Shown here: piece after piece, positions 2,871 to 57,695 of the stretch
How the letters are laid out: each line of letters starts with the position of its first letter
Numbering within the stretch: position 1 is the stretch's first letter
NCBI GenBank assembly: GCA_013239625.1
Contig: MU053629.1
Location: 282,676 to 346,675 of the forward strand
Length of the DNA: 64,000 bases
Direction: 5' to 3'
Source: Lama guanicoe
Lineage: Eukaryota
Made by a program: the position numbers and the translations under genes
The notes under the pieces: model-generated
Database searches by the model: none
Told to the model about the DNA's origin: nothing
Seen by the model: only the letters and a program-made list of their open reading frames with translations

Positions 2871-3964
2871 TTTTCAAAGTGCTTTCTCTCCACCTGGACA
2901 GTGGATTTCAGGCATCTCCGTCATATTTTCAGGAAAATGGGGGTGGGGTCCCTTGGGCTCAGAGAAATGAAGCCACTTGACCAGGGTCAGAGGGCAAGTG
3001 GGAGGGGTGGGACTGGAGTCTCAGAGGGGACAGGACTAGCGGGCGGCCCCCTCTCGGCAGTGGATCCGGGCTTCAAGTGGGGCTTCAGTGGGACCACGAG
3101 GGCTCAGGCTTGCCCGGGAGCTCATCTCCTCTGTCTGGGGAGATGTTTCTGCCACCTTTTTCTCCACAGTGCTGGGCTGGGCCTCCTTTAAGCCCCCAGA
3201 ACAAGGTGGGTCACCTCCAATCACCCAGCCCGGTTCCTCTCATTGGAAAGGCGTGCCCTTTGGTGAAGGGGAGGATGCATTTTTGAGGTGAAATATTGTA
3301 TACAGCCAGGAACAGAAAACATTAAAAGACCATGGATGTCAGCAAGGTTCGCACCAGGGCCAGAAAGTTCAGGAAAAAAGACAAAGCTTCCTTGCAATGA
3401 AGGATCAGCCAGGCGGTCCACACCCTGTGTCCCAGGCTTCCTCCATCTTCAGGGTTAGAACAAGCCTTGTCTGGGCCTGGGGAAGGTCCCAGGGTGGTGA
3501 CCTCAAGAAAGAGTTGCCAGATATGCAGAAAATATGCATATCCTGTATATGCAGAATATGCCCCATATGTATATGCAGCATATGCATATATGCATAATAT
3601 GTCCCATATAATTTTGCCCTGCATCTTATATTGACCTTGTCAGAATGCCCTAAATGTCTCGTATTCAGCTTTTTTTCCAATAAATTGCAAGAGTTTGGCA
3701 ATTAGAGCTTTTTTTCTGCCACGGTTACTGGTGCTTGCATCACTTAAATGGCAGCACTGGTTAAAAATCACACACATCCTTCCTAAATAAAGATCTGGAC
3801 CACTCTTTATGTTCTCTCCTGCAGACTTAGCTGTGGGAGCATCAAAAGAGGGGACTGGCAAGTGTAAGCACTTACTTTTATATTCAAGAAAGGGAGAAGC
3901 TATTCTTTAACCAAAATCCCAAGTCAAGAACATAACCACTGTTAATTAGAAGTGACTTGGGTCT

Positions 3965-4430
3965 ATACACAAGGAAAGTCTGAGAAACCGTCACATTCAG
4001 TAAGGGTCTGAGCAGACATGATGACTATAATGTGCTGTCCTGGATGGGATCGTGGAACAGAAAAAGGACTGGGTAAAAATTAAGGGAATTTGAATAAACT
4101 ATGGCCTTTAGTTAATAACAACATATCAATATTGGTTTGCTGACTGTGACAAATACACCATATGAATGTAAGATGCTAATAATAGAGGAAAATGGTTATA
4201 TGGGGACTCTACTATCTTCATAATTTTTTTGTAAATCTAAAGCTATTCTAGGGGGAAGGGTTTAGCTCAATGGTAGAGTACATGCTTAGCCTGCACGAGG
4301 TCCTGGGTTCAATCCCCAGCACCTCTGTTAAAAAAAATTAAATTAAATAAATACATAAATAAACCTAATTACCTACCCCCCCAAATAAATAAGTAAAACT
4401 ATTCTAAAATTTTAAATGTATTTTCAAAAA
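3965..4430 (+). mobile_element. L1MC-like 3' end, interrupted by a SINE
   Basis: tcctggatgggatcgtggaacagaaaaaggac...tgtgacaaatacacca...tgtaaatctaaa..tattcta. Confidence 0.8.
4251..4394 (+). mobile_element. tRNA-derived SINE (vic-1-like, long form)
   Basis: Box A tagctcaatgg, box B ggttcaatcc, AT-rich tail with aaacctaattacc; TSD aaagctattcta/aaaactattcta (4239-4250, 4395-4406). Confidence 0.92.
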
Positions 4431-6139: not shown

Positions 6140-6258
6140 ATATATATATATATATATANNNNNNNNNNNNNNNNNNNNNNNNNNNNNNNNNNNNNNNNNN
6201 NNNNNNNNNNNNNNNNNNNNNNNNNNNNNNNNNNTATATATATATATACACACACACA
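6140..6258. repeat. (TA)n/(CA)n microsatellite spanning a 76-N assembly gap (6159-6234)
   Basis: Directly visible. Confidence 0.97.
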
Positions 6259-9203: not shown

Positions 9204-9759
9204 CTCAAAATGGAAACATGGAAGGGACAGCCAAAAAACCCCACTTCTTACAACATTCTTTTGAAAACTCCACCATCTGGGTCAGACGACAACAGTTCTA
9301 ACTTAACCCGTGTACACAGGTAACACCCCAGCCTTCCCTACACCTGGCTACCCTGTCTGGCACAAGACTCAAGCCCTCCTCTTTAAAGGCCCTGCGAGCC
9401 AGACGTTAGGAAAGAGCCCACAGCCTTCTTTTGTAAGACAAGCAGAGCCACCTTGTGGTCGATTTAGAAAATTGTGTTTGAGGCTGCCGTCTTGCAGAAG
9501 CAGCATTAAATGGGGATGCCCTGGAGGAAGGAGATAGAAACAAACAAACAAATAAAAACAGGAAAGCAGGCTTCATTATTAAGGAAATTTGGAAGAAGAG
9601 ATATTTATTGTGTTTCTTTAAAAAAGTACAGTTACATTGGCAATTAAGTTTAGGAAATGCTGAGTTAAAGTTAAAAGAAATTTATACTCCCACCCCCTAA
9701 TATGTCCTGATTGTGAATCGGTCAGAGGAGTATATCATGCAGTATTTAAAGTTGCTCAA

Positions 9760-15165: not shown

Positions 15166-15303
15166 GGGGAGGGTATAGCTCAGTGGTAGAGTGAGTGCCT
15201 AGCATGCATGAGGTCCTGGGTTCAATCCCCAGTACCTCCATTAAAATAAACAAATAAATAAACCTAATTATCTTCCCCTCCAACAAAACAAAACAAAGCA
15301 AAA
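15166..15303 (+). mobile_element. tRNA-derived SINE (vic-1-like) within an old L1 3' fragment (~15030-15780)
   Basis: ggggagggtatagctcagtggtagag...gggttcaatccccagtacctcc; TSD agaaacaactt (15151-15161, 15304-15314). Confidence 0.93.
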
Positions 15304-17344: not shown

Positions 17345-19291
17345 GGTGCGAGCTCAGACAAAATCCTCCAGGAGGTAACTTCAATCTGATATTGCAGGGG
17401 AGCTCCGGAGGGTAAGTTGTGCCTCAGACTCTATCGTGACTTGAGACAAGGGAACCAGGTTCCAGAGCCATGGGCTCAGGGCCCGGGCTTTCCAAGCTCT
17501 CTGTGCAGGTGGGCAAATTCTCCAGTAGCCCAGGGCAGTCCTCCAAAGAAGAGTCACATGTGAGTCACAGGGACCTGAAGTCACAGCTCACAGAGGCTGG
17601 GGAGGAGCTCGTAAAACATCACATGGAGCCGCAGAGGTGTCCCACCCTGCCCTTGACGGCCTGACCTGAGAAGAAGAAGCGACAGGAGAATTCCAGGGCT
17701 GGGTCAACCGGCCAGGACCCTGAAGAGCCCTGTCTGTCCCTCGGCTATGATGCTGCCCTGACTGCTGGCTTCCCCCTGGAGGCCTTGGCCACGGCTGCCT
17801 GAAATCAGCGCTCCCTGAGATGTTCTGCCCACCTAAGGGGAGCAAGTGTGGAGCTCACCCTCAGGCCTGGGAGTGTGTGTGGTCTGTTTACCTCTGGTGG
17901 AGTCAGTAATGGTTATCAAGTTTCAAACCTGTTTGGGATTGCAGGATCAGAGGGTTTAAGAATACTACCTAGGTGGCCATATTTTCAAGAGAATTGTTGT
18001 TCACTCTGCCTTCTGCATGAGGCCGGATTCACTGGTGCTGAGGGAATCCAGCTAGTCCCTCGGAGGAGCCAAACCCCTCTTGCAAACGCAGCTAAACAGG
18101 CTTCGTCCCATCCTCACTCCTCTCCCAAACTCCCCCTGTCACTGTGGCTTCCCCTCCACCCACCCTCATTTTTGTCTTTCTACCCCTTTGCCCACCTCCC
18201 AGCCAAGTGACCAGTTGTTGGAGCTGGCACAACTGAGACACAGGTGGGGCCACCTGTCCGCGCCAGGCCGTTCTGCCCACCCGCCTCTGGCAGCTGCCGG
18301 CTTGTGGGCATTTCAGAGGCCCAGGCAAGGGGAGGGAGGCAGGAGGGGATAGGAGCAAGTCCTGCCAGGCCAGGCCCGAGTGCTGGCCAGCAGCCATCAT
18401 CAGCCTGTCCTGGAAAATTAGACAGAGAATTTTCAGCCAAATCCAAATAATGGCTCCTGTTAGGAATTGTCCAGATTCAAATTCCAAGTTATGTTTACAT
18501 CTCTGGAGCTGCAGAAGGTGCCAAAGCTTGTTCATACATGAACAAATTTAAAAAATCCTCTTTCCAACAGCTGATTTACCTTCTGCATTAAAAAAAAAAA
18601 AAAAGGAAGAAAGCGGCCTTTCCCCTGACGGTGCTGTGGTTCGATACTCGCCCTAGAAATATCGCAGGGGGCCTGAGATCGGAATGGAATCTGGCTTTGC
18701 TGGATGTGCTGGATACTCAGGAGGCCGCTTGGCACACAGGAAATTGTATTGCTCCAATCATTACCCTGCAGCGCAAAGCACAAAGACATTGCTGTGCTTT
18801 GCTTTTATTTCCTTGAGGACCTTGATTATTTTTATTTATCACATGAAGACCAGCGTTTGAATACAAACATGGGAAGCACCAAATAATTCTTCACTCCTAC
18901 CTCTTTCTGTGATTTAATCCCAGGACATTTTGTGAAGAAAAGCAGTTTCTAGGGGAGATGCTGTTAATCAGACTGTGTTGCCAGCACTGGCTAAGGGAAA
19001 CCACACATTTGCTCTTTATGCAATTTATACTGCACAAGGGGATGTTTATAATTAAAATACTAAGAAGTCAAATATGTTATAGAGTAAAAGGTATAAGGAG
19101 ATAGGCATAATGTGTGATGAACTATTTATCTTTTCACCTAACATTTCCTTTGATCCAAAACAGCAGCACTGGCCCTTTAGGAATAGTGATGAAAGTATGT
19201 GTGTGAGGATGTGCAGTCAACTAATATTTGACCAGGGAGCCAAAAATGCTCAATGAGGAAAGGATAGTCCCGTCAATAATGGTGTTGGGAA

Positions 19292-22005: not shown

Positions 22006-22805
22006 AATACATTGTGAGTCTTGGAGAGGAGTAGCAGAACACCCTCTAAATGCCAGACTCCCACGAACACAGAGCCCCCATTTTCCTACGTAAAGACCAA
22101 CTCTTCTCTGGAACACACTCTGGAAACTTTATGCAACCCATTCAAAAGTGAAACTTCTTCCAGAAGTCAAACACATTTTAAAAGCCAGTATCTATCACTG
22201 CATATTTTATGAAAGGCAGATTTTTCACTCCCATTCACCTATTATCATTAGCTACCTTTATTTTATGTGCCTATTTCATTAGTTTACAATCAATTGCATT
22301 TTTGTACAAATTTTGGCAGAAGGAAGTCTTGTCATTGGATTTTAAAATATATTTTCAAGGGGTCTTTATTGGATATTAAAATGTAATATAATATATTCAG
22401 TGTATGTGTATATACATAATTGTACTGTATAATTATTATATACACACATACATACGATGTATTTGTATTATACATTTACGTCTATATGTATACATATTAT
22501 ATATTATACATATACACACACATATATATCCATATTTAAATAGGGTGTCAATATCAGTTTTTCTTCAGAATGTTTTTCTGATATGTACCTTGCCAAGTAT
22601 TTCAGAGACGATTTAATACAGGCAACTAGTTACTAAAATGTTGAAAAGGGTGGAAGAATTAAAAAGGCTGAGAGGAGATAGCCGCAAGTATTAGTAATCT
22701 GAGGAAACGCTGTCACTCGTAGGGCTGGGGAATCAAAGCTGGAGGAAGAGCCCCAGGTGTATCCTCTAGGTGAGGCTGCTGGGGGTGTCCTGTGGGGCAC
22801 TGGGA

Positions 22806-22819
22806 CCACTGGGTGGCGC
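22806..22819 (+). promoter_or_regulatory. CTCF-like motif
   Basis: CCACTGGGTGGCGC, one deviation from CCASYAGRKGGCRS, in a non-repeat GC-rich patch. Confidence 0.45.
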
Positions 22820-22938
22820 CCTCAGGCCAATGCCCAAAGTGCCCAGCCAGAGCCCTGGGCAGGGGCAGAAACCATGCAGGGGCTGCCTGGCGGGTGCTGG
22901 ACCACTGAGGCTGCAGGGTGAAGAAAAGGCTCCCGGCT

Positions 22939-34266: not shown

Positions 34267-34553
34267 TTTTTATTTTTCTAATTTTTTAATGCATTTATTT
34301 TCTTTGAAGCTTTTAAAATTCTTTTTTTCTTTTAGTGGAGGTACTGGCAATTGAACCTAGGACCTCGTGCATGCCGGACGTGTGCTCTACCACTGAGCCA
34401 TTATCCCCCATTTCTGTTTTTGTTTTGGGGGGTAGGTAATTAGGTTTATTAATTAATTAATTAATTTTTAAATAGAGGTACTGGGAATTGAACCCAGGAC
34501 CTTGTGCATGATAAATACACACTCTACCACTGAGATATACACCCCACACACAC
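34267..34553 (-). mobile_element. Tandem pair of vic-1-like SINEs
   Basis: Two tRNA-like heads (5' ends near 34410 and 34545) inside one TSD tggtatatttta (34255-34266, 34554-34565). Confidence 0.9.
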
Positions 34554-40746: not shown

Positions 40747-40847
40747 GGGGGCTGGGTATAGCTCAGTGGTAGAGCCTACGCTGAGCATGTGCAGGGTCCT
40801 GGGTTTAACCCCCAGTACCTCCATTAAAAAATCAAAAATCAAAAATA
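40747..40847 (+). mobile_element. vic-1-like SINE (short form)
   Basis: TSD aaagatgcactatctt/aaagatgcaatgtctt (40731-40746, 40848-40863). Confidence 0.92.
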
Positions 40848-41495: not shown

Positions 41496-42218
41496 AGAGA
41501 AAGGTCCCTCTAGTGGCCAATCTGTATAATACCCAGTGGAACAGGATGCCCCTGGAAGGCTGGTACCTGGCAGTGGCTGCTCTTTTGGTTTTCTGACAGG
41601 AAGGGGATGCAATGAAGAGGCTGGCTTCAGACAGACTGTGAAGGGGTTTCTGGCTGGACTAAAGACGTTGAGCTTTGCTTTATGGGCAATGTGAGACGTT
41701 GGGCAACACAAGTGTTAAAGGAGGGGGGGGACAAGTGACCAGTTCTCCATTTTATAAAGGCAGCGCTTGCCCTCAGCACTTGGGTAACTATCAGAGCATA
41801 AATGATGAAAATGAAACAGCTAGCTTAAGAAATAAAAAACTGAAATAAATTAAAACCTCGTCGCGTGTGCTTGGCTCGGGGCTAAGCCGAAGACAGGAAC
41901 TGCCATTGCTTTGCTGGCTGAGGGAGGTGAGCACAGAAATCAGCCCTCAGCAAGCCTGCCCTCCTCACCGCCTCCTGCTCCACCTTCTGCATCACGAGGG
42001 ACAGATACCCCCACCAAAGCTCCCCACACTTTGGCACTGGGAAAGTCTATTAAAACAAAGCTCAAGAACCCCTGGAAAGGGAAGAAAAGAGGCAGTTATC
42101 ACCAAAAGACACCTTGAAGACTGCATCAGTTACGATTAAGTTTGACTCTGGATAAGAATTTCAAAATAACAGTGATTTCAGCAGACAAAAATTTCTTTTC
42201 CCTCCTTACGTAAAAGCA

Positions 42219-42624: not shown

Positions 42625-43700
42625 CGTCCTCACAATAACCCCATGATTAGGTTGCTTACGAGCCTGACTTTATAGATGAGAAACTGAGGCCCAGAGATGC
42701 TAACTAACTTGGCCAAGATAACAGAGCTAGCAAGAGTTTCGGGAGAAGAATGGAGAGTACAAGCAGGGGACACCCTGCAGCGTGGCTCACTGGCTGGATG
42801 CTGGAAGAGGACACAGAGGCAGGTGCCTGCCCAGAGGACCATGGAGGTTAAGGGTAGACTCTGGAGTGAGACCCAGGTTCAAATCCTCACCCCACCATCC
42901 AGTAGCTGTATGGACTTAAAGAAGTGACAGGACTTCCCTGAACTTTATTTCTCTCAGCTGAAAAATGAGGACAATGACATCACCTGTTTTGTGGAGTTGC
43001 GGGGAGGATATGTGTGAAGTGCTTGGCCTGTGTCAGGCGTGGGGTCACGTGATTTTTAAATACAGGCCCAGGAGTTTACTGTGGGATGAGGGCCAAGCAG
43101 CGTCTGGACCATCTGGAGGCAGGAGAAAAGGGGCTTTGGGGATAGCGTTGCTACTTCAGAAAGGATTCAAATACCAAAACAGAAGCCTTTTGGCCTTGGC
43201 TGGCAGGGAGGAAAGGGCCAGGGCACCTGAACCTGCCTTTTTGAGCCCCCATCATTCTCTCTGCTAGGGGTCAGGAGGGTTGCAGAGGAGCAGGGCAAAT
43301 GGACCCTGCCCATGGGAGCTGCCTGTCTGTGGAAGGATATAGTTTTGAAAACTTAGAGAGATGCCTGCAGCAGTACTTCATCATCTACTGCCTCCAGCCC
43401 TGTTCAGTCACAATCACAAAAACCCTGTTCAGGATATGAAACCCCCTACCTATAGCAGGCAGGACCCTGGGAGCGCCTGCTCCTTCAACAGGAGAACAAT
43501 TCTTGAGAACAATTCTATTAAGCACTTGTTGAGTGAAGGCACTGTCCTAGATGGGATTTGCACACTCCGTTCATTCTTTTCAAAAATTCCTCAGGGAGGT
43601 ACTGTCAGCCCCAATTTGCAGACGAGAAAACTGAGGCACAGAGCAGTTAAGACACTCTCCCAAAGTCACCCAGCAGAGGATTATAGCCCAAGCTTCCCAC
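42625..43700. mobile_element. Cluster of MIR fragments (~42625-42745, 42840-43040, 43510-43700)
   Basis: MIR core ttatagatgagaaactgaggcccagaga; cccaggttcaaatcc; other MIRs near 6400, 26400, 46750, 49050, 50350, 57800, 59650. Confidence 0.75.
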
Positions 43701-43734
43701 GCAGAGCCCACCTTCTCACACCCTATATAAGCTA

Positions 43735-43910
43735 TTGATTTGAGCTTCATTACACAACAGAACCCCTGGGCAGCTGGTTAAAAACATACAAACCTGGGTC
43801 CCATCACCCAGAGATTGTGATTCAGCAGGTGAGAAGAGCAGCCCAGGAATATGCGTGTTTACCAAATACCCTGGGTGATCCTGGAGCACTCTCAAGTTTG
43901 AGAAGCACCC
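43735..43910. mobile_element. MER5A-like MITE
   Basis: cctgggtcccatcacccagagattgtgattcagcagg...caagtttgagaagcac. Confidence 0.7.
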
Positions 43911-43929
43911 CTCTGTGGTGGTGGAGACC

Positions 43930-45600
43930 CTCGAATCGTGGTGCGAACAGGAGCCAGCTGCAGAGGCCTAGACCGCGATGCGGCTTCAGGAGTATCACAA
44001 AACAGATGCTGATTTCGTTTTTTTTTACTTTTGTTTAAAACGAATTCAACGAAACGGAGAGTAAACGCATCTATAACTGAAAGGAAACCCGATCTTAACA
44101 GGCTCTTGAGCCAGGGGTGGGAGCAAGGAGGCCCACAGGTCAGCCGTTCGGGAAGGAAGGCGTGCTGTTCCTTCTCAGCTGCGGGCGCCCCAGAGCGCTG
44201 AGGCCGTCAACTGTCCCCGCCCGCAGGGAGAGGCGCGGCGCGGCGAGCGCGCGGCGGGCCTGGGAGCCCCGCCCCTCAGGTGGGGGCGTGGCCTGAGCGC
44301 GGGCCTCCGCGGGAGGACCAGACGCGGCTTCGCTAAACCAGGCTGCAGGCTCGCCCACTAAAGCAGAACCTAAGTCGTGCACCTCACCAAAGATTCTGAG
44401 TCCCGGACTGACGTCCACTGGGTTCCACCTGATGCCTTGCCTCCCTCAGAGACAGCCCCTTGCTTCTGCAGAGCCCGTCCAGTCCAGGCGGGGAGGGCCC
44501 GTTTGCTCCAGCCCCCCTGCCCCATGCCTCCCTGTCACCCCCGGCTCGCCTCTTCTGTGCCTCAGACGTGCTTAAAGAGGTTCAAAGAAGAAGCATTTTT
44601 AAAAGTTGGCACCACGAGGAAAGTCAGCCTCCCTCTGAGGAGGATTAGCGGTACCTGTCTCTGTGGAGTTGTCCGACGAACCTCCGTCCGCCCGAAGTCT
44701 CCTCACGGCAGGCCCGCTTCCGGGAGCTGCCAGACTGACGGCGGGAAAAGCCCGGCCTCCGTGCGGCACCCAGGTGGGCGCGGGGCCCGGGGTGCGGACG
44801 GAGACGTGGGGGCGGGGCGGGGGGGCCGAGGGTCCCCGCAGGACGGGCGCTCAGGGGCAGAGGGCCTCCTGGCTGGTTTCGGGAATGGGGCCAAGAGCCG
44901 CCTCAGGGTAATGGCGAGGGCAGGGACACGGGCGACGGCAGCTTGAGCGGGGGACGTGGACTCCTGAAACCGGGACGGCCCGCCTGTGGTAGAGCTGAGC
45001 CTTCGGGCGTGCGGGCGCGGGTCCGGGGGACGCTGGGGTGCGCCCCGCCTGGCTTGTCCCGGGAGCGAGGGTAGAAGAACGGAGCAGTTGTTTCCCGGTC
45101 TCAGTGGAGGACTGGGTGGTGTCCCTCCTCCCTCTTCCTCGGGGGCCCGAGGCCCTGTTCTCTCTGGAAGGAGGCAGGGAGGCAGTTAAATGCCTGGGGC
45201 TAGAAAAGCTGCCGGAGAAACAAGTGGGGAAACATGGAGGCTGAGAGGCGGTAGGGCAGAGAGAGAGACCAGGAAAATAAGAGCAGAGAAGGAGAGCACA
45301 AAGGACAGGGAGATGGGGACCGACGCAGCGAAAAGGAGAAGGGGCCGGGACGGGTTAGACCCGCGGTGCCCGCCGCGCGCGTGTCCGCGTGGCGCTGCGC
45401 TTCCCGCCGCGCGTGGGGACCGCAGTCCGGCGCCGAGAGCCTTGGTCCTGGGACGCGGGGCGCGGCCGGAAGGGCGGCCGCCCCCTCGCCCGTCACGCTC
45501 CGCACGTTCGTGGGGAACGTGGTACTAAACCATTTCGGGGCGACCTGCTTTGGGGGGGTGGGGGTCGTACGTAGCAGAGCGGCTCCCTCGCTGCCATCTA
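43930..45600. promoter_or_regulatory. CpG island 2, candidate (possibly bidirectional) promoter
   Basis: Dense CpG; ETS cttccgg 44717-44723; tgacg plus E2F-type ggcgggaaa 44736-44748; GC boxes/G-runs 44808-44825; outward-facing splice donors at 44654 (-) and 44774/44908 (+). Confidence 0.75.
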
Positions 45601-45711
45601 TTGAAAATCAGCCGTTGGCACAAGGGTTTGCAGAAAAAAAGGAGGAGGAGGAGGAATTGAAAAAAGGAAAAAAATATATTAAAAAAGAAAGAAAAATTAA
45701 AGAAAGAGAAA
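45400..45711 (+). pseudogene. Retroposed 28S rRNA 3'-end fragment with A-rich tail (SINE28/LSU-rRNA-type)
   Basis: ggcggccgccccctcgcccgtcacgc..cgcacgttcgtggggaac..ctaaaccatt..cgacctgctt..tcgtacgtagcagagc.gctccctcgctgc.atctattgaaa.tcagcc..cacaagggtttg matches the mammalian 28S 3' terminus (roughly 85% by eye against recalled human sequence); ends at 45630, tail 45632-45711; 5' limit ~45360-45400. Confidence 0.93.
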
Positions 45712-46417
45712 GCAAGGCGATCAGAGTCACAATCTGACTCTCCTTCTATGTGGTCTCGCCGTGGGCTCTTTGGCCTCGCAGCGGCTTCCTTGGGAAAAGT
45801 CTGCCCTGGGCCAGAAGGGAGGGTCTTCCACAGATGGTGGAGGGATGTGCGGAGGCTGCTGGAATGTAGGACTAAGAGGCCCTTGCAGTCGGGGGCAATG
45901 GAGAAGGGGCTGAGACAATCCGTCCTCTCTCATGGTGGAGGCCAGGGGACCCATGTGCAATAGGGGTGACAGCACCTACCCCTAGGGGGACGGAAGATGG
46001 CGTAGTCACCTCAGCAGCAGTGCCGAAGGTTCGTTCCAAGAATAATGATGAGGGACTGCACCACTGAGGAGTTCGTAGGGACAGCAAGGTGTCCATCTCA
46101 GGGGTATTTACGTGGTGGAGTCCTTGCAGCTTGATTGACCAGCTGTAGAGGGAAAGGGAAAAAGGAAAACCAAAATCTATACCTGGGTTTCTATTTTGAG
46201 TAATGGGTGGATGATCATGCCATCAACTAACAGGGGATAAAGGAAATGCAGATTTTATGAGGAAGTCACTTCTGTTGTGCTATTCGTTTTTGTGCAGAAA
46301 ACAATAACTGGCCAATAAACATGGGAATATGCTCAACTCCACTATTAACCAAAGAACAGAAGTTAAAACAAGATCATTTTCTTATCAAACTCACAAAGAT
46401 ATAAGATTCAGAAATAT

Positions 46418-46515
46418 GGGGGTATAGCTCAGTGGTAGAGCACATGCTTACCATGCACGAGGTCCTACGTTCAATCCCCAGCACTGCCATTTAAAAAAGA
46501 GAAAGAAAGAAAAGT
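46418..46515 (+). mobile_element. vic-1-like SINE (short form) inside an old L1 fragment
   Basis: TSD agaaatat (46410-46417, 46516-46523). Confidence 0.9.
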
Positions 46516-50444: not shown

Positions 50445-50637
50445 GGGGGGAAGGTATAGCTCAGTGATACAGCACATGCTTAGTATACACAAGGTCCAAG
50501 GTTCAATCCCCAGTAACTCCATTAAAAAATAAAAATAAATAAACCTAATTACCTCCTGCCCCCCCTCAAAAAAACCTCCAAAATGAAAAACTCGGTGATT
50601 TAAATAAATTAATAAATAAATGAAATCTTAAAAAGAA
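50445..50637 (+). mobile_element. vic-1-like SINE (long form)
   Basis: TSD aagaatttag (50434-50443, 50638-50647). Confidence 0.9.
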
Positions 50638-57183: not shown

Positions 57184-57695
57184 TGCAACAGTCAGAGTCT
57201 CAGCAGGAAAACAGAAACCACTCTAGGTATTCAAATAGAGGGGTTTTAATATAGAGAACTGGTTACACAGATGATAGAAATGCTCAGAAGAGAGTGGAGA
57301 AGTCAGACAAAAGACAGTGAAGCTACCAACAGGTTCCCGATTTCTGGAAGCCTGTACCATCTCTTGAATGGAGGGAAACAGGAAGAGGAGATGTTATTAG
57401 GACCGAGGGGCTGGGATCACTGGGGTTAAACTGGAACGAGGTGGGCTAGGTCAGCAGGAAGTGGAGCCATAAAGGAGATGCCACCCGAGAAGAGAAGGAG
57501 AGGGAGAAATACCCTAAAGTGTCCGCCTTCCTGCCCACCAGTCTCCCACTAGCACCTCTCATTGCTGGAACAGAGCTGCAAGCCGGTGGACAAGGGAGCC
57601 CATCAGATGCAGCCTGCAGGGGTCAGTCCCCTTACACAGCGCAGGTAAAGAGTGAGGGATGGCACTGAGGACAAATAGAACCAGGGCTCGCATAA
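57184..57695. mobile_element. ERVL-type LTR (LTR33/41/50 group)
   Basis: cagtcagagtctcagcaggaaaacagaaaccactctaggtattcaa...gatgcagcctgcaggggtcagtcc. Confidence 0.6.

Follow-up and report, generated by a model that had tools for sequence, protein, structure and literature searches.

Can a single base change in an old copy of 28S ribosomal RNA create a binding site for CTCF, and would such a site mark the border of the CpG island beside which it lies? This question is raised by a locus in the guanaco (Lama guanicoe), within a stretch of 64,000 nucleotides (here called the window) that is mammalian DNA with tRNA-derived SINEs. A first-pass annotation of the window proposed that one substitution in a 28S retrocopy, at position 45595, had produced a CTCF motif on the minus strand. 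It further suggested that 28S-derived retrocopies may be proto-CTCF sites one mutation short of completion, and that this site could form the right border of the island. We have compared the retrocopy with natural 28S sequences and with known retroposon systems, scored the candidate site, and asked how much of what is seen would be expected by chance.

The retrocopy and its ancestral base

SINE28 elements are tailed fragments from the 3′ terminus of large-subunit rRNA and are found in all mammals examined; according to the available text of the report they range from 65-437 bp, and in human, where the copy number is low, there are 27 loci, on average 86% like 28S (Longo et al. 2015, PMC4994717). 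The insert described here (Table 1) resembles them in being a 3′-terminal 28S fragment of a size within this range, with an A-rich tail directly 3′ and a likeness to 28S of 85-87%, but it differs in adjoining a CpG island, in having kept its CpGs, and in the indistinctness of its target duplication and endonuclease site. Camelids are absent from the genome list in the available text of that paper (PMC4994717).

Table 1. Positions of the features discussed, numbered from the first base of the window
Feature	Position	Strand	Basis or remarks
Promoter-type CpG island, non-rRNA	44051..45100	.	GC 0.68, observed/expected CpG (o/e) 0.76, GC boxes, ETS motif, donor-like site (-)
CpG-poorer gap, native island to insert	45101..45345	.	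o/e 0.37
Candidate 5′ target-site duplication	45331..45342	+	11/12 identical to 45637-45648; 55/300 shuffles with equal score, not significant
Retrocopy of 28S rRNA 3′ end, SINE28-type	45346..45632	+ (sense)	blastn to natural 28S end (L007), shared terminus
CTCF core-like match (predicted)	45589..45607	-	11.3 bits, p=2.5e-5, MA0139.1
G>C transversion	45595..45595	+	within rRNA CpG; puts G at position 10 of the core, in the triplet of ZF4
Second 19-mer substitution, G>A	45607..45607	+	adds about 0.7 bits
A-rich tail	45633..45712	+	80 bases, 65% A, 90% purine
Candidate 3′ target-site duplication	45637..45648	+	partner of 45331-45342

Natural 28S 3′ ends were sought by a pattern scan of metagenome, genome and viral contigs. 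The metagenome contigs gave one match, L001, which carries an animal 28S 3′ end; the genome contigs gave 27, of which one was 28S (L007, a natural animal 28S 3′ end on a contig of 277 bases from a bacterial assembly) and 26 were due to chance, as were both matches in the viral contigs. L001 aligns to model positions 3295-3381 of Rfam RF02543 (LSU_rRNA_eukarya) with E=1.4e-6 and 34.6 bits, short of the gathering score of 50, and is identical to a tammar wallaby SINE28 probe across the 19-mer of the candidate site. As regards the public record, bases 1-277 of L007, the whole contig of a Mycolicibacterium assembly, are animal 28S 3′ end and likely represent contamination, while L001 (about 380-625) is likely a chimera, in which apparently bacterial sequence is joined to the animal 28S end.

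The blastn alignment with L007 (188 columns, 76.6%, E=6e-32) begins at 45443 of the window and runs to 45630, and the retrocopy terminates at the same point as both L007 and the tammar probe. Its length is 188 aligned bases, or about 290 with a probable 5′ limit near 45346, which is drawn from the candidate target duplication together with a step in GC and CpG content rather than from an alignment. This candidate duplication opens with four A and is preceded by GCG, not TT, in a check for the L1 endonuclease hexamer at the 5′ junction. The retrocopy has a GC content of 0.71 and 42 CpGs (o/e 1.17, against a window mean of 0.26), with no excess of TpG/CpA, and Rfam scans of the window at two thresholds did not call it as rRNA. 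Immediately past the tail, at 45723-45741, there is an inverted repeat of seven bases around a loop of five.

Direct reading of the window gives C at 45595 on the plus strand, and both this base and the letters of 45588-45606 agree with the first-pass annotation, whose statement that 28S has G here is likewise borne out. The homologous base is G in five independent sources, namely L001, L007, a human 45S primer (PMC4822031), a mouse rRNA-depletion oligonucleotide (PMC12517755) and the tammar probe (PMC3576234), the last three as printed in the available text of their papers. A text search of the literature for the site sequence turned up 9 papers that print the G version and none that prints the C version. 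Since G is shared from marsupial to human, it is very likely that camelid 28S itself has G at this position.

The retrocopy is about 13% diverged from 28S: of the 71 columns with the same base in L001 and L007, the window has another base in 10 (3/45 plus 7/26), and a comparison by eye with the tammar probe shows 6 differences in 48 bases. With neutral rates of substitution, on which the age rests, this divergence suggests some 50-65 million years, with a wide error because changes to G make up 13 of the 23 positions at which the copy departs from L007. These 23 differences lie at 45524-45626 (plus strand), and the tammar probe indicates that two of them are lineage differences; the many changes to G could be a product of gene conversion, biased towards GC, in the neighbourhood of the island, which would inflate the age. 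Among the 10 differing columns, that at 45530 is probably a difference of lineage, as a human primer in the available text of the SINE28 paper shares the window's base (PMC4994717).

In 14 DNA runs, from four organisms and eight studies and with one run possibly the source, the share of words from 44000-46400 that was present was 0.93-0.97. As the insert makes up 12% of this region, all four organisms probably carry it. Six RNA or RNA-like runs gave word shares of 0.07-0.22, which is by itself no evidence of transcription.

The candidate CTCF site and its chance expectation

We scored both alleles, with a uniform background, against a CTCF matrix which we take to be JASPAR MA0139.1, its counts being self-consistent (column sums of 908-913). 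The C allele gave 11.3 bits (p=2.5e-5) and the G allele -3.8 bits (p=0.006). A CTCF-like match on the minus strand is thus confirmed, but its full 19-bp register is 45589-45607, one base rightward of the 45588-45606 that had been proposed. Four settings of background and pseudocount gave 11.0-13.9 bits (p=0.8e-5 to 3e-5), with p<1e-4 in all and p<1e-5 in one, and both substitutions within the 19-mer increase the score.

In the numbering of the CTCF core, 45604-45590 reads TCA ATA GAT GGC AGC and 45595 is position 10, so that the candidate site has G at positions 10 and 11 and departs from the consensus at positions 1 and 4. The pattern of contacted bases that Hashimoto and colleagues reportedly described in 2017 is matched exactly at this site only within the 64-kb window, where 0.32 matches are expected; 26 of 100 shuffles had at least one. 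In the available text of a structural study, Val454 and Met424 are too distant to contact positions 1 and 4, Arg368 (in ZF4) and Glu362 hold the base pairs either side of position 11, and the affinity measurements concern position 11 only (Yang et al. 2023, PMC10484683). We infer that Arg368 is the reader of position 10, the G supplied at 45595. Because the mismatches fall on bases without direct CTCF contact, the C allele is likely, on this structural reading, to bind CTCF better than the G allele in vitro. Positions 2-3 and 12-13, which are methylation-relevant in CTCF (PMC10484683), are CpA rather than CpG at the candidate site. The upstream motif read by ZF9-11, which has T at position -12 and C at position -10 from the core (PMC10484683 section 16), is absent at the four spacings considered, which have C/A, C/A, A/C and A/G at these two positions.

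Within the window this matrix finds 16 sites at p<1e-4 and five at p<1e-5, and the candidate ranks 8th, with seven scoring higher. The consensus used in the first-pass annotation, when two mismatches are allowed, matches 17 places in the window (16 besides the candidate), where 10.6 are expected. Compared with sites sampled from the matrix (mean 17.2), the candidate scores at the 10th percentile. From 43500 to 46500 it is the sole match at p<1e-4. Five stronger matches to the matrix (14.1-16.7 bits, p<1e-5) lie at 9443-9461(-), 22803-22821(+), 17767-17785(-), 57610-57628(+) and 41501-41519(-).

Neutral simulations of the L001 tail (5,000 per setting, five settings) reached at least 10.6 bits in 0.3-0.7% of cases and p<1e-4 in 0.7-1.6%, a low figure that is tempered by the candidate having been chosen post hoc out of the whole window. 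The window itself holds 9 sites of at least 10.6 bits per 64 kb, a rate per base no lower than that of neutral copies. Simulations from L007 gave 0.05-0.3%, which understates the mammalian case since the base of L007 at matrix position 3 differs, and for this reason L001 was used instead. The two changes in the 19-mer fit drift (P(<=2)=0.31-0.57), with no significant constraint; the surrounding block at 45565-45611, with 3 of 45 changed, has been preserved better than its upstream neighbour, with P=0.03-0.17 for a block picked post hoc.

For a random genomic match of like grade the odds of occupancy are roughly 2-6%, assuming 40,000-100,000 bound sites, 2.1 Gb and a uniform background. CTCF preferentially binds accessible sites (PMC11275995, available text). 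With the estimate raised for open chromatin, we put detectable CTCF occupancy of the candidate site in cells at about one in four.

28S copies as a proposed source of CTCF sites

The proposal that 28S copies are proto-CTCF sites holds in that natural 28S is one substitution from a 10.6-bit match and that G>C turns a non-site into a match at p<1e-4. It is not supported in treating them as special, since the 64-kb window holds 65 equal one-step proto-sites, 48 of 219 tiles of 290 bp contain one (10 of 19 among GC-rich tiles), and neutral conversion occurs in the 0.3-0.7% given above. Given the 27 human copies and a neutral chance of 0.3-1.6% for each, the expected yield from tens of 28S copies is under one site per genome.

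Known proto-motifs mature through CpG deamination (PMC8240256; PMC3228489, available text of both). The completing change at 45595 is a transversion rather than the C>T transition of a CpG: deamination here would place T at core position 10 and give 4.5-5.6 bits (p about 4e-4 only), so that the site requires the rarer change. Single-change births of CTCF sites in primates number 90 via deamination and 832 via other changes (PMC3228489). The locus is like the E-boxes of RSINE1 (Judd et al. 2021, PMC8240256) and the p53 and Myc sites of Alu (Zemojtel et al. 2011, PMC3228489) in having a near-miss motif, one substitution and a position beside regulatory DNA. However, RSINE1 and Alu have fast CpG deamination, many thousands of copies and binding data, whereas 45595 offers a transversion, tens of copies and a single predicted case. 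In RSINE1, the maturation of a proto-motif depends on context (PMC8240256).

A short retroposon that supplies a CTCF core is also known from rodent B2, the dog SINE (LYS) and opossum MAR_Mdo (Schmidt et al. 2012, PMC3368268), and the SINE-borne sites of dog and opossum have an M1-only core (PMC3368268). B2, LYS and MAR_Mdo differ from the 28S copy in that their motif is already complete and, as they spread, has reached bound loci numbering in the hundreds or thousands (PMC3368268). The motif is not in the 28S source, as L001 and L007 score -4.5 and -5.9 bits with the matrix used here, and no such repeat-borne expansion to many loci is seen, the C version having been printed in no paper that the text search covered. 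CTCF and rDNA-derived sequence also meet in the CTCF site of the rDNA repeat itself (van de Nobelen et al. 2010, PMC2993708), although its place there is upstream of the spacer promoter rather than at the 3′ end of 28S. The rDNA CTCF ChIP signal described in the available text is specific to the spacer promoter, which agrees with the G allele being a non-site (PMC2993708).

Our literature search, made in a collection with few subscription journals, returned no report of CTCF sites in 28S retrocopies. CTCF is not discussed in the available text of the SINE28 paper (PMC4994717), nor mentioned in bioRxiv 10.1101/2025.02.02.635956, and the word 'rRNA' is absent from the available text of Schmidt et al. 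2012 (PMC3368268). The repeat LSU-rRNA_Hsa is enriched in oestrogen-receptor peaks (PMC3478180, available text).

The right border of the island and competing readings

Within the native, non-rRNA island there is an ETS motif at 44723(-) together with a CRE half-site, and position 44656(-) has a donor-like site. These features suggest a first exon on the minus strand, and the open reading frame lists of the island region hold no recognisable gene. With its CpGs retained, the insert lengthens the island by about 290 bases. Its last CpG is at 45613-45614 and the next in the window at 45718, with 45615 to 45717 CpG-free. The edge that the candidate site had been suggested to mark thus coincides with the point at which the CpG-rich rRNA insert gives way to its A-rich tail, and since in any 3′-terminal 28S copy the motif lies about 25 bases from the tail, its position at the edge comes with the insert. 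The simpler reading, which needs no CTCF, is that the right edge of the island is where the rRNA ends. In the 3′ block, four of the eight CpGs of L007 have been kept. Retained CpGs in so old a copy point to an unmethylated germline setting, and promoter euchromatin is known to spread into nearby insertions (PMC3491417, available text).

We consider that the locus is best explained as an ordinary SINE28 copy in which a medium-grade, core-only CTCF match has arisen by drift, a reading to which we give a probability of roughly 0.7. Tens of millions of years ago, to judge from the biology of SINE28, the L1 machinery would have copied a polyadenylated 28S 3′ end into DNA flanking the promoter-type CpG island. 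Lying in an unmethylated zone, the copy would have kept its CpGs and so become the right-hand block of the island, with the consequence that the island ends where the rRNA ends. It has since drifted by about 13%, the G>C transversion at 45595 being one such change, which by chance supplies the G that ZF4 of CTCF would read at core position 10. In cells the resulting site would most likely be unoccupied or weakly occupied and without a selected role.

Several observations count against drift. The candidate is the sole local match at p<1e-4 and the sole contact-pattern match in the window, the neutral rate is only 0.3-0.7%, the mismatches are uncontacted, both changes raise the score, 45565-45611 is better kept, and the retention of CpGs suggests an open setting, of the kind in which CTCF preferentially binds. 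An alternative is a proto-motif that has matured into a site occupied by CTCF in camelid cells, in open, unmethylated chromatin by the promoter. The structural fit at every contacted position and the CpG o/e of 1.17 despite 13% divergence are in keeping with this reading, as are CpA at the methylation-relevant positions 2-3 and 12-13, the context-dependent maturation documented for RSINE1 (PMC8240256) and the hundreds of single-change CTCF births in primates (PMC3228489). Such a site would be a lineage-specific passenger of little effect and would not set the border. Nevertheless, with the low percentile of the score, the missing upstream motif and five sites at p<1e-5 elsewhere in the window, we regard it as unlikely, if deserving of some weight. 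It is also highly improbable that the C is a private variant or an assembly error, in which case camelids would have no fixed site that calls for explanation: although C is known from one sequence and the word shares of 0.93-0.97 in the DNA runs are too coarse for one base, the copy carries many other substitutions, among which one more old change is expected, and there is no homopolymer or gap at 45595.

A role for the site as a boundary seems to us highly improbable. By this account CTCF would block the spread of methylation from the right, or anchor a leftward loop over the promoter, and the site would be kept by selection. It lies at the right edge of the island, the motif block is slightly better conserved, and the motif is oriented towards the island, the orientation of CTCF motifs being subject to a rule for loops. 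Moreover, CTCF with H3K4me3 has been found between methylated ERVs and promoters (PMC3491417, available text). Most of the insert's CpGs do lie on the inner side of the site, yet the euchromatin of a promoter can by itself leave insertions close by free of methylation (PMC3491417). The end of the insert already explains the edge, and the 19-mer is without significant constraint. We are equally doubtful of the fuller version, in which a latent CTCF core, one substitution short in the final 45 bases that animal 28S conserves, has been completed, bound and kept as the right-hand insulator of the insert-extended island; if this were true, an rRNA fragment would have been exapted as a chromatin boundary. 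Were the site both bound and needed, rRNA retrocopies would join the sources of CTCF sites and the locus would offer a clean G-versus-C test of site birth, with the ancestral sequence persisting in rDNA. Even then it would count for very little in the genome as a whole, where chance matches of equal grade number in the tens of thousands. Under the preferred reading of drift, the locus at present stands as a further SINE28 copy that carries a look-alike of the motif.

Elsewhere in the window, tRNA-like matches at 4256-4327, 15169-15240, 34473-34544 and 46418-46489 are apparently the heads of one tRNA-derived SINE family, of which further copies lie at about 34340-34410, 40750-40820 and 50450-50520. 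At about 6159-6236 a run of 76 N falls within an AT dinucleotide repeat.
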